The notes under the pieces are model-generated. The model was given only the letters and a program-made list of their open reading frames with translations. It was not told the origin of the DNA and made no database searches. DNA of 13,062 bases from the NCBI GenBank assembly GCA_016184305.1, contig JACPCX010000084.1, forward strand, positions 1-13,062, written 5' to 3'. Of this stretch, positions 5,551 through 7,878 are shown piece by piece. This stretch comes from Candidatus Rokuibacteriota bacterium (GTDB taxonomy: Bacteria > Methylomirabilota > Methylomirabilia > Rokubacteriales > CSP1-6). The position numbers and the translations under genes are program-made. Position 1 is the first letter of the stretch. Every line of letters starts with the position of its first letter.

Positions 5551-5904
5551 GTGCCTACCTACGAATACGAGTGTCAGGGTTGCTCCAGGGTCTTCGAGGT
5601 GCGACAGCGGATTTCCGAGCCGGCGCTGACGACCTGTGACGAGTGTGGTGGTCCCGTTCGCCGCCTCATCGGAGCAGCCACGTTCATCCTGAAGGGCAAG
5701 GGGTGGTACGTCACCGACTACCCCTCCGAAGCACGGAAGAACGCGATGAAATCCGAGTCATCGTCGACACCCACCTCCGGAACCGACGGACAGTCTAGCA
5801 CGGCGGGAAAGACCGACTCTCCTTCTTCGGCGGCCTCGGCACCGGTAACTGGCTCCTCGTCGGGGACCACCAGCACGGGCAAGGACAGCACCAGCAAGGC
5901 CTAG
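5551..5904 (+). CDS. FmdB-family zinc-ribbon protein with Ser/Thr-rich tail
   Basis: MPTYEYECQGC...CDECGG...FILKGKGWYVTDY is the typical FmdB signature (two CxxC). GTG start; low-complexity C-terminus. Confidence 0.93.
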   Translation: MPTYEYECQGCSRVFEVRQRISEPALTTCDECGGPVRRLIGAATFILKGKGWYVTDYPSEARKNAMKSESSSTPTSGTDGQSSTAGKTDSPSSAASAPVTGSSSGTTSTGKDSTSKA

Positions 5905-6051
5905 CAGGCCGCTGAAAAAGGCCCATCTGCTTCGTTGGCTCGGTCGCTCCTCGCTCAACGTACAGCGAGTACGCCTCGCTCGTCGCATCCCTCGCCACCT
6001 TGCATCTGGACCTTTTTGAGCGGCCTGCGGAGTTTTTCAGCAGCCTGCTAG
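5901..6051. mobile_element. Non-autonomous MITE/REP-like element with 15-bp TIRs flanked by CTAG
   Basis: CTAG (5901-5904), CAGGCCGCTGAAAAA (5905-5919) ... TTTTTCAGCAGCCTG (6033-6047; 14/15 inverted match), CTAG (6048-6051). A third, internal copy of the right end lies at 6013-6027. No coding capacity. Confidence 0.8.
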
Positions 6052-6833
6052 GACACCCTCGCCCGGACCGGGGTGCCCCGCCGGGCGCCGAGGATGGCCC
6101 GGGCGCTCCCTTCCCGGACGAAGATCTCGAGACGGCCCTGCGACCCGATGATGGGCGCCGGCACCCCCGGCTCGCCCCCGGAGTAGAAGGCCTTGAGGGG
6201 CCCGAGTCGCCTGTCCCCCACCTCGACCTCGACCGTCGCCCCCCCGGCCAGCCGCGCCATCCCCTCGGCCATGAGCGAGGTGATGAGGTTACCGAAGCGA
6301 TCCTCCGCGATCACCTCCCCCACGAGCGCCCCTCCCTCCTCCCGGGCCGCCGGAAGATCGAGGCGCACGGGGTCGAGCACCGGAGAGCCGAAGTGCTCGA
6401 GGCGCACTCCCCGCGCGAGATGGGCCGCGGCGGGGGCAAATACATCCCGCCCGTGAAAGGTCTGGCTCACGTGTGGCCGCCGGTAATGCTCGGCCGTCAG
6501 GCTCACCGCGGTCCACCCGGTCGTCTTGAAGGCGAAACTCAGGAGACCATTGTCGGGACCGACGAAGCACTGTCCTGCGGATTGGACCGCCAGCGCCCTC
6601 CGGGCGCTCCCCACCCCGGGATCCACGACAGCCAGGTGGACAGTCCCCACGGGAAAGAAGGGAACCGACGACTCGAGGGCGAGCTGGGCGCCGAGAATGT
6701 CCTGCGGGTCGATGTCGTGGGTGAGGTCGACCAGGTGCGCCTCGGGGCAGATGCCGAGGATCACCCCCTTCATCACCCCGACGAAGGGATCGCGCAGCCC
6801 GAAGTCCGTGGTGAGCGTGACGATCGGCGGCAC
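6048..6833 (-). CDS. SAM hydroxide adenosyltransferase (DUF62; SAM-dependent chlorinase/fluorinase family)
   Basis: Start set at GTG 6833: (M)PPIVTLTTDFGLRDPFVGVMKGVI, VVDPGVGSARR, FVGPDNG, SQTFHGRDVFAP, DRFGNLIT. The extension to 7199 overlaps the upstream gene and is spurious. Confidence 0.93.
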   Translation of the reverse strand: MPPIVTLTTDFGLRDPFVGVMKGVILGICPEAHLVDLTHDIDPQDILGAQLALESSVPFFPVGTVHLAVVDPGVGSARRALAVQSAGQCFVGPDNGLLSFAFKTTGWTAVSLTAEHYRRPHVSQTFHGRDVFAPAAAHLARGVRLEHFGSPVLDPVRLDLPAAREEGGALVGEVIAEDRFGNLITSLMAEGMARLAGGATVEVEVGDRRLGPLKAFYSGGEPGVPAPIIGSQGRLEIFVREGSARAILGARRGTPVRARVS

Positions 6834-6849
6834 CGCCCGCCCCCCCCGG

Positions 6850-7878
6850 TCAGCGGTCGCGGCCGACCACGAAGTCAGCGATGAGCGCCAGGGTTTCCTT
6901 GTCCTCGCAGTCCTCGAACGGGCCGAGGTCCTCCTTGGCCGTCTGGGCGTAGGCCTGGGCCCGCTGAAGCGCGTAGTCCACGCCCTCGTACTTGACCACG
7001 ACCCGCCGGATCTCCTCGACCTCGGCCGGCGACGGACCCCGGCTCGTGAGCACCACCTGGATCCGCTGGCGCTCGGCCGGCGCCGCCCGCTCCAGCGCAG
7101 CGATGAGCGGCAGCGTGCGCTTGCCCTCCTTGAGGTCGGCACCGATGGCCTTGCCCAGCCGCGCTTCGTCGGCGACGAAGTCGAGCGAGTCGTCGGCAAG
7201 CTGGAACGCGATGCCGATGTCCAGCCCGTAGCGCGTCAGCGCCTCGAGCCGCGCCCCATCGGCCCGAGCCAGCAGGGCGCCGATGCGGCAGCACGCCGAG
7301 ATGAACGAGGCCGTCTTCTGGGTGATGATCCGGAGATAGTCGGCCTCGGTGGTGGTGCCGGTGCGCTTCCGCTCGAGCTGGAACACCTCCGCCTCGGTCA
7401 TGGAAACCGTGGCATGGGCCAGGGTGTCGAGCACGGCGGGGTCGCCGTCCCTGACCATCAGCGCGAAGGACTTGGAGTAGAGATGGTCGCCCACAAGGAC
7501 GGAAGCGTCGTCGCCCCAGCGCGCATTGGCCGAGGGCCGGCCCCGCCTCAGCGGCGCCTGGTCCACCACGTCGTCGTGGATGAGGGTGGCCGTGTGGAGC
7601 AGCTCGACCACGCAGCCGAGATGGACGGCCCGGGGCCCGCTATAGCCCGCCAGGCGCCCCGCCATGAGCAGGAGAATGGGGCGGAGACGCTTGCCACCGG
7701 CTCCGGCGATGAACCCGCCCATCTCACGAATCAGCTCGACCGGCGAGTCGAGCTCCCGGGCGATCTCCGTCTCGATGGCGGCGAGCTCGGAGCCGATGAG
7801 GAGTCCCACGCGCTCCTTGAGGAGCGTCTCGAGCGAGGTGGGCGAGGTGAGCGGCGCGCGCGGCGCGGGAACGGTCAA
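6850..7878 (-). CDS. ispB: Long-chain trans-polyprenyl diphosphate synthase (IspB/HepT-like)
   Basis: GGKRLRP, first Asp-rich motif LIHDDVVD...RRG, QKTA, second motif FQLADDSLD, GADLKEGKRTLP. TTG start overlaps the upstream TGA (TTGA). Confidence 0.92.
   Translation of the reverse strand: MTVPAPRAPLTSPTSLETLLKERVGLLIGSELAAIETEIARELDSPVELIREMGGFIAGAGGKRLRPILLLMAGRLAGYSGPRAVHLGCVVELLHTATLIHDDVVDQAPLRRGRPSANARWGDDASVLVGDHLYSKSFALMVRDGDPAVLDTLAHATVSMTEAEVFQLERKRTGTTTEADYLRIITQKTASFISACCRIGALLARADGARLEALTRYGLDIGIAFQLADDSLDFVADEARLGKAIGADLKEGKRTLPLIAALERAAPAERQRIQVVLTSRGPSPAEVEEIRRVVVKYEGVDYALQRAQAYAQTAKEDLGPFEDCEDKETLALIADFVVGRDR

Follow-up and report, generated by a model that had tools for sequence, protein, structure and literature searches.

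The genes for a Zn-ribbon protein and a SAM hydroxide adenosyltransferase converge in a 13,062-nucleotide (nt) stretch of Candidatus Rokuibacteriota DNA (contig JACPCX010000084.1 of assembly GCA_016184305.1), which is referred to here, at its full length, as the window. Between the two genes lies a non-coding element of 147 bp that folds into a long hairpin. An earlier reading of the bare letters—the original prediction—had drawn attention to this hairpin on account of the tandem G.A pairs in its minus strand, and had proposed that it might be a selected single-stranded structure, serving as a strand-discriminating recognition site for a mobilizing enzyme or as the structured 3' end of an operon messenger RNA (mRNA). 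The hairpin is genuine, though it is no single-copy structure: it belongs to a repeat family. Its core lies at 5904–6028, as described, but the structure reaches outward from there to 5901–6051, with a second, partial copy of one arm and CTAG at both sides (Table 1).

All 12 of the TC dinucleotides from which the fold had been deduced are present on the plus strand (5955/5976, 5951/5980, 5948/5983, 5944/5988, 5940/5992 and 5926/6005), as is the loop, which reads TCGCT on the minus strand. Folded about this loop, the minus strand sets GA opposite GA, with Watson–Crick spacers between and one bulged T, so that its pairing comprises 40 Watson–Crick pairs, three G.T wobbles—the three that had been claimed—and 12 G.A or A.G cells in six tandem steps. 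The outer stem, 5904–5930 against 6002–6028, is Watson–Crick at 23 of its 27 positions, also as stated. When 5'-GA-3' facing 5'-GA-3' is scored as pairing, and the null is taken from dinucleotide-preserving shuffles of both arms, the inner arms score 38, against 5.5 ± 4.7 (maximum 22) in 5000 shuffles, none of which reaches 38; without the G.A rule they score 11, and the plus-strand arms score 2. The pairing is beyond chance, and the earlier observation is confirmed. The minus strand is, moreover, the better folder of the two, as had been claimed: in ViennaRNA, over the 171 nt from 5890 to 6060, it reaches −87.1 kcal/mol (z −5.4), and the plus strand −67.1 kcal/mol (z −3.3). A kink-turn is defined by a three-nucleotide bulge adjoining tandem G.A pairs; the G.A steps here have no bulge, or a bulge of one nucleotide, and this candidate was set aside.

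Copies of the element, which the original prediction had advised looking for, abound in the source genome (G000: 3.2 Mb in 239 contigs, 88.8% complete, 70% G+C). A 166-nt stretch has 53 matches there, and a profile search with nhmmer finds 83 non-overlapping loci, some 71 of them of this family; the other 12 read as eight solo copies of a nested 62–66-nt repeat and four copies of a second family that shares the core. Thirty-four loci have both ends intact, 14 of them measuring ~153 nt and 20 measuring ~215 nt, and many of the remaining copies are truncated. Inserting the 62–66-nt repeat at the apex of the short form gives the long form; this C/T-rich repeat is separate from the element, and occurs alone and in tandem as well. 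Just three of the 83 loci fall inside called genes, and each of these is the nested repeat on its own.

Beyond the source genome, the element is present in 16 of the 41 related genomes that form the comparison set (the tallies count the unpublished G012, and G001 and G002 are congeners of the source), scattered patchily across five families of the order. Searched for in public genomes, the exact 19-nt arm motif occurs in at least 123 stretches, mostly from metagenome-assembled genomes (MAGs) labelled NC10, Rokubacteria, Rokuibacteriota or Methylomirabilota; the few MAGs with other labels we take as binning noise. In two metagenomes, summed contig depth is 14,000–32,000 over the element and ~10–100 on its flanks. 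Among the top-ranked literature matches there was no paper on such Rokubacterial repeats.

The layout of the element is modular: CTAG, the L arm, a linker with two alleles, the inner stem, the apical module, the R1 arm, the R2 tail and CTAG again. L and R1 pair as terminal inverted repeats, and R2 repeats part of the arm. The sub-terminal block and the apical module are conserved; the inner stem is exchangeable. In the common form the inner stem consists of 10–11 Watson–Crick bp, with G.A steps at its two ends only. The window copy belongs to a minor subfamily, of five copies in the source genome, in which this stem is replaced by alternating tandem G.A steps and Watson–Crick spacers of 1–3 bp, G/A-rich on the minus strand. 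Other repeat families of the same genome have the apical module, CGTAC/GTACG with a GAGG/TTGA internal loop, in common with it. One of these, the second family, has quite different ends (GGGTACTGGGTCAATT...) on the same core and apical module, with a compensated lower stem and two of the same G.A steps; because it pairs the same core with different ends, the core seems to be a module that element families have traded. In a third family the apical module has another loop, ACCCA; seven such sites were found (e.g. C193:16575-16700 and C197:24522-24650). Miniature derivatives, too, are found—CTAG-bounded remnants of 26–45 nt, or copies without the core, left by internal deletion.

Table 1. Features of the element and its flanks in the window, and sites of other repeats in the source genome (G000)
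Feature	Position	Strand	Remarks
Left CTAG	5901..5904		Target tetranucleotide; TAG at 5902-5904 is the stop codon of the plus-strand Zn-ribbon gene; the empty site in G002 has one CTAG
L arm, outer stem	5905..5930		Conserved block ending CCCATCTGC; its TC (5926-5927) is the outermost minus-strand G.A step
Linker and one inner-stem arm (G/A-rich variant)	5931..5963	minus	3' arm on the minus strand, with five GA steps
Apical loop	5964..5968		AGCGA on the plus strand; variable among copies
Other inner-stem arm and linker	5969..6001	minus	5' arm on the minus strand
R1 arm	6002..6027		Pairs and covaries with the L arm
R2 tail	6028..6047		Second, partial inverted copy of the L-arm end; no covariation with L; absent from some subfamilies
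Right CTAG	6048..6051		CTA at 6048-6050 supplies the TAG with which the minus-strand SAM hydroxide adenosyltransferase gene ends
Zn_ribbon_8 (FmdB-type) protein, 117 aa	5551..5904	plus	PF09723, E 5e-16
SAM hydroxide adenosyltransferase (SAM_HAT_N/C) gene	6048..7199	minus	Flanking gene
62–66-nt C/T-rich repeat sites	G000 C76:60899-61022, C10:21259-21328, C18:7235-7319, C193:16575-16652, C197:24522-24592, C215:63962-64037
Second repeat family sites	G000 C77:24679-24771, C46:18406-18472, C204:8546-8612, C36:19312-19364
Miniature derivatives	G000 C37:56-89, C120:37060-37115, C73:2115-2208

The copies covary as a hairpin should. In an alignment of 65 distinct short-form copies from ten genomes, read as the minus strand on a structure of 54 pairs, 32 of the pairs show two-sided change; shuffles give 14.3, and none of 500 is as high. 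Cells with two-sided changes number 170, against 42.9 in shuffles and 16–44 when the partners are slid by 1–3 columns, and 80.9% of cells are standard pairs, against 74.1%. Pairing reaches 97.6% in the outer helix (helix 1), where 14 pairs covary, and 97.7% in the apical helix. Over their terminal ~15 nt, the L and R1 arms vary among subfamilies yet remain complementary, and the sub-terminal blocks and apical module are constant. The R2 tail does not follow the changes of the L arm.

The G.A steps are conserved within this framework. In the outermost step, where CAGATG faces CAGATG, the first pair is G.A in all 65 copies and the second A.G in 63; in the apical step A.G is again found in 63, and G.A in 47, with G-C in 17. 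The original prediction had staked itself on other copies keeping GA opposite GA and compensating in the spacers, and other genera do both. Inner stems of the G/A type occur in nine copies, from five genomes of four genera (G000, G001, G022, G024 and G028). Set each against 1000 shuffles of its own arms, eight of the nine are matched by none and the ninth by one; without the G.A rule, the same stems score −1 to 13, which is chance level. Four G.A steps stay in register across the printed pairings of these copies, and the spacers change compensatorily around them: steps 1 and 2 enclose GG:CC, CC:GG, A:T, C:G or G:C; steps 3 and 4 enclose C:G or G:C; and step 4 is followed by GC:CG, CC:GG, C:G, G:C, GT:CA or GG:CC. 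Cross-pairing between subfamilies, the 5' arm of one with the 3' arm of another, was judged by eye. A literature search yielded no paper on tandem G.A in transposable elements.

The two strands do not fold equally well. With RNA parameters the minus, G/A-rich strand is the more stable in all 65 copies (mean −86.0 against −73.3 kcal/mol), and with DNA parameters in 61 of them (−44.6 against −41.1). Three columns are fixed as G.T on the minus strand, in 57, 56 and 50 of the 65 copies, with G-C or A-T in some subfamilies; no column is fixed as A.C. Because the G.A steps and the three fixed G.T pairs form on one strand only, and are kept across genera with covarying spacers, master copies would seem to have been selected to fold as single strands, of DNA or of RNA, in the course of propagation. 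We infer a single-stranded stage, and an enzyme that acts in trans. The element is a non-autonomous mobile hairpin that inserts at CTAG, akin to a MITE (miniature inverted-repeat transposable element) or a REPIN, and in our view its master copies have probably been selected to fold single-stranded as they propagate. Whether the single-stranded form of the G/A-rich strand, be it DNA or RNA, is needed for that propagation is a question on which we stand about evenly balanced. The selected single-strand structure of the original prediction has fared well: GA faces GA across genera, the stem covaries, and the element is polymorphic between close genomes.

The polymorphism is visible in the window itself. 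Positions 5905–6051 are an insertion: in G002 the flanks abut at a single CTAG, where the source genome has CTAG, 143 bp and CTAG, and G003 is likewise empty at this site, reading TTAG. At the empty site the TAG stops of the two convergent genes, Zn-ribbon on the plus strand and SAM hydroxide adenosyltransferase on the minus, overlap in the CTAG palindrome. The element would have landed in this shared CTAG, which is why both genes retain a TAG stop after the insertion. Elsewhere, among 29 congener loci compared with the source genome, six elements of G001 are missing from the source; five of the sites are empty (three CTAG, one GTAG and one CGAG) and the sixth, at G000:C76, holds an 11-nt remnant. 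The flanks of these six are 95–99% identical between the two genomes, and so the insertions are recent. All six belong to the G/A-rich subfamily, which is therefore mobile. The copies at C139 and C25 add no empty site: one locus holds an element in G001 too, and in G003 the intergenic region lacks homology.

Among the 34 intact copies of the source genome the left tetranucleotide is CTAG in 26, GTAG in four, CCAG in two, and ATAG and CTGG in one each; the right, read by eye, is CTAG in about 20. Flanking CTAGs repeatedly decay to CCAG or CTGG in G000, G001 and the complete, repeat-rich chromosome OY970067.1 (G041); a CTAG that serves as the stop codon of a gene stays intact. CTAG on both sides, and a clean single CTAG at empty sites, is also what might be expected of an ordinary MITE moved as double-stranded DNA by a DDE transposase, IS5-group-like or IS630-like, with the strand asymmetry an accident of its founders. 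We think this unlikely, although several observations favor it. MITEPsy1, an IS5-family MITE of Pseudomonas syringae, duplicates 'CTAG or YTAA' and has a similar block in its terminal repeat, in the account of its ends and target in PMC3189936; IS630 prefers TA in CTAG, to go by a title cited in PMC2170065; and the 11-nt remnant at C76 could be an excision footprint. Some copies have identical odd tetranucleotides at both sides—CTAA/CTAA, TTAG/TTAG or ATAG/ATAG—and these look like true 4-bp duplications of the kind a DDE enzyme makes. Yet only some of the odd pairs are identical. GTAG/CTAG and TTAG/CTAG pairs are common, one of them with a verified GTAG empty site, and they contradict strict 4-bp duplication. 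The left tetranucleotide varies (GTAG, TTAG, ATAG) beside a right CTAG in 14 copies, against two mirror cases (p = 0.004; these tallies, across tables, were made by hand), and symmetric TA duplication is disfavored as a result. Covariation of the arms can be accommodated by a DDE-mobilized MITE, if both ends must fit one transposase or if the arms convert each other, but in-register G.A steps with covarying spacers across genera are nothing that a duplex-binding protein requires.

The ends differ, too, in how they meet genes. In G041, from which 40 copies were fetched, half per orientation class, 26 copies, 13 in each class, have the L end directly after a stop codon that closes a co-directional gene, and the R end lies at a stop codon in two (p = 3e-6). 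The tetranucleotide before the L end is NTAG in 22 of the 40, NTAA in six and NTGA in four; one copy has TGA one base further upstream, and seven have no stop codon. Symmetric cut-and-paste predicts both orientations at stop codons, and 26 against 2 is a poor fit to a DDE-mobilized MITE. For the source genome, gene contexts come from a home-made codon-usage gene caller, and there the L end alone is on a stop codon in 17 intact copies, the R end alone in nine, and both in two (p = 0.17). The window copy is tallied as R-only, since the caller misses the Zn-ribbon gene. The codon usage of that gene is atypical (log-odds score −13.7), and the protein has a low-complexity tail rich in Ser, Gly and Thr. 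We conclude that the L end is joined, on the coding strand, immediately 3' of a stop codon, most often TAG, and that the right end brings its own CTAG. Oriented insertion 3' of a short sequence recalls the IS200/IS605 type: the orientation bias fits a derivative of that kind, whereas the apparent duplications in some copies do not.

Replication was considered as the source of a further bias. The arm motif has 59 matches on each strand of G041, whose origin lies near 1.7–1.9 Mb and whose terminus near 4.0–4.2 Mb (from sampled GC skew and gene orientation; the 1.3–1.9 Mb zone is ambiguous). Counted by hand among 100 listed matches, elements are 26 plus and 11 minus at 1.9–4.05 Mb and 22 plus and 41 minus elsewhere, an odds ratio of 4.4 (the Fisher p of 0.0005 was computed on a miscounted table, 29/11 and 22/40). 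The gene-strand bias of this chromosome is itself strong: in sampled 20-kb windows, some 79% of coding sequence is on the leading strand. The bias of the elements, of which 67% are co-oriented with replication, is real but no larger than that. Since the L end follows stop codons equally in both orientation classes, gene orientation explains it, and we read it as a by-product of stop-codon landing, not of replication. In the source genome, orientation relative to replication judged by GC skew gives 20 against 15, which is no signal.

Position at gene ends might equally reflect a service to the host. The hairpin could be a host-selected RNA element made from the G/A-rich strand—a stabilizer in the 3' untranslated region, a terminator, an RNase target or a small RNA—and in the window the G/A-rich strand is indeed the 3' end of a minus-strand operon. 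Contigs from two sediment RNA libraries also include pieces of the element, with summed depths of 962 and 93 against ~4–5 on the neighboring gene, but these are contigs without strand, to which DNA may have been carried over; they show presence only, not strand or ends, and we draw no conclusion about expression from them. As the purpose of the family, the structured mRNA 3' end of the original prediction is not supported. Flanking genes in the source genome are (+,+) at 16 of the 83 loci, (−,−) at 16, (+,−) at 13 and (−,+) at three, so that co-directional contexts divide 16 against 16; and G041 favors the weaker, plus strand in read-through, which transcribes it in 26 of 40 copies, against two for the other. 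Many copies are truncated, and presence varies between close genomes. Rfam has no match to the hairpin at the gathering threshold (best E-value 0.87, scores far below threshold), no intrinsic terminator was found between 5600 and 6400, where runs of five Ts lie inside the stem or 5 nt past it, and the element has no consensus promoter. A host RNA we regard as quite improbable, and we do not think that the fold serves the neighboring genes.

An enzyme acting in trans was sought, and the original prediction had suggested looking beside the copies. No transposase or HUH gene with matching ends was found. No L end leads into a transposase gene: across 80 public loci with 84 L ends, R1 lies within 400 nt of 79, and the remaining five are degenerate small copies. 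No full-length insertion sequence with the same ends was found, and none of the transposase loci examined carries the arm motif, save that among the 6 DDE_3, 6 Y1_Tnp and 12 DDE_Tnp_1 loci fetched from G041 the exact motif is present as one small copy. A DDE-mobilized MITE is thus left without a parent. PF13358 (DDE_3, the IS630 family), PF13586 and PF13359 have no match in the element-rich genomes G000, G001, G002 and G006, which are 79–94% complete, and the search of IS427-type and Harbinger-type families gave nothing related to the element. Several candidates were rejected on their ends. At 15 loci in relatives, IS630-type genes are bounded by terminal repeats of another kind and the arm motif is missing, the 12 DDE_3 matches of G041 have unrelated ones, and the ends of DDE_Tnp_1 (PF01609) genes are likewise unrelated. 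G041 also contains an insertion sequence of 1520 bp in 25 near-identical copies, with 18-bp terminal repeats, a 483-aa open reading frame (ORF) with a weak DDE_Tnp_1 match, and apparent 5-bp target duplications (L364:903-2422); with other terminal repeats and 5-bp duplications, it was rejected as the parent.

The HUH enzymes, which work on single strands, suggest another alternative, in which the element is REPIN-like and a RAYT-like (HUH, Y1) protein mobilizes it by acting on folded single-stranded DNA. Much about the element suits this. It is a long hairpin with compensatory changes, in clusters or tandem arrays, as REPINs are in the portrayal of them in PMC3116915; the foot of its hairpin is marked by a conserved tetranucleotide; it joins asymmetrically beside a short target; and the source genome encodes, at G000:C13:34221-35117 (L097:961-1860, minus strand), a RAYT-like protein of 299 aa with an HUH-type motif and a C-terminal extension. 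Some relatives have an intact gene; in G003 and G028 it is broken. G041 has 14 weak Y1_Tnp paralogs, which hint at a possible link. The distributions, however, do not agree. The RAYT-like gene is in 11 of the 41 genomes and the element in 16, and just four have both: G000, G002, G003 (fragments only) and G028, where the gene is broken. G001, with its recent insertions, lacks this gene at 94% completeness, and no element motif adjoins the RAYT-like genes. We consider this alternative doubtful, a shade more so than a DDE-mobilized MITE. Two more single-strand candidates were dismissed. The one IS200-type tnpA-tnpB unit found (G001:C7) has unrelated ends. So do IS91-type Y2_Tnp elements, whose flanks are not CTAG and which occur in 13 of the 16 element-positive and 12 of the 25 element-negative genomes. 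The Y2_Tnp genes are a feature of the order in their own right, present in 25 of the 41 genomes (nine matches in G001) and in none of 14 control genomes, and their copies adjoin a tyrosine-recombinase-like gene.

Several of these results weigh against a mobile hairpin selected for folding on one strand. Sporadic wobbles fall about equally on both strands in the outer and apical helices, where 21 cells are G.T and 17 A.C, and so the strand asymmetry belongs to subfamily founders, not to drift in single copies; it could have been inherited from a few of them, as a DDE-mobilized MITE would have it. One fixed mismatch, C.C, lies on the minus strand, the 'good' one. The preferred orientation in G041 puts the weaker-folding strand on the coding, lagging-template side, and because the strand that bears the target folds the more weakly, the simplest IS608-like model, with the G/A-rich strand active, is disfavored. 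The copies are related by descent, so that counts of copies are not counts of independent events, and the number of such events is overstated by them. To these must be added the apparent 4-bp duplications; the want of co-occurrence, across the 41 genomes, between element and RAYT-like gene; the unrelated ends of the IS200-, IS91-, IS630-type and DDE_Tnp_1 genes; and the lack of any enzyme linked to the element among the transposase families searched. Of the strand-discriminating recognition site for a mobilizing enzyme that had been proposed, one half stands, a selected single-strand structure tied to mobility; the other half finds no support, as no HUH or DDE transposase with matching ends or distribution was found.

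Our preferred reading is nonetheless a mobile hairpin with master copies selected to fold on one strand. In outline, a folded single strand, ssDNA or RNA, would be a stage in propagation, and the L end of the element is joined just 3' of the stop codon in the coding strand. A bolder version is possible, if unlikely: that the element represents a new class of stop-codon-homing DNA, propagated through one strand that is zipped by periodic sheared G.A pairs and read by a single-strand-specific enzyme, possibly a RAYT-like HUH paralog, with the G.A steps acting as the strand label.

What is new here is the comparative test of the structure: covariation, in-register G.A steps and strand asymmetry. 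In Rokubacteria/Methylomirabilota, an abundant, uncultured phylum of soil and groundwater, the space between genes is filled with small hairpin repeats, which also break the assemblies. The element accounts for many CTAG-bounded hairpins at gene ends, where gene callers should handle terminal TAGs with care. It is also a natural experiment, in which one scaffold comes with a Watson–Crick or a G.A-step inner stem, both forms recently mobile. The G.A-zipped stem offers a handle on how parentless hairpin elements move. Should the G.A steps prove to be needed, a parentless bacterial miniature element would have been shown to use a strand-specific folded intermediate, and the mobilization of orphan MITEs such as ERIC and Correia would become directly testable.

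By target and end, MITEPsy1 is the closest characterized relative. In what PMC3189936 reports of its structure, it is likewise non-coding, ~100–150 bp long, with terminal inverted repeats that contain a CTGAAAAAG(G)CC block, a CTAG (or YTAA) target and a tetranucleotide on both sides; its terminal repeat, in Table 3 of that paper, contains CTGAAAAAGCC, which is close to the L-arm block of the Rokubacterial element. MITEPsy1 has a plausible parent in ISPsy2 and a strict 4-nt duplication, by the same account (PMC3189936), whereas no parent was found for the Rokubacterial element, the left tetranucleotide of which often differs from the right. The strong stop-codon orientation bias of the latter, and its G.A steps with covarying spacers, set it further apart. 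With the REPINs, and with REP sequences and their RAYTs, it shares extragenic hairpin units, compensatory changes, clusters, a proposed folding of ssDNA or mRNA and the lack of an internal transposase, as these are set out for REPINs in PMC3116915. Unlike them, it has no co-occurring or adjacent RAYT that we could find, and a defined target with a clean empty site; in place of two REPs, its unit is a single long hairpin to which a right tail is added.

To our knowledge, ERIC and Correia elements have no conserved tandem G.A steps. They resemble the Rokubacterial element in being orphan hairpin MITEs, of ~127–155 bp, often at gene ends and with no known parent, and their RNA hairpins are RNase substrates, according to what PMC10969869 says of the two (PMC10969869). 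They differ from it in host phylum and sequence, and no promoter or IHF-type features are seen in the Rokubacterial element. IS200/IS605 elements insert in one orientation, directly 3' of a short specific sequence, and require folded single strands to do so. Theirs is a different architecture, with a separate small hairpin for each end and no flanking repeat, but in the bias of its joining, 3' of a short sequence, and in its presumed dependence on a folded single strand, the Rokubacterial element resembles them.

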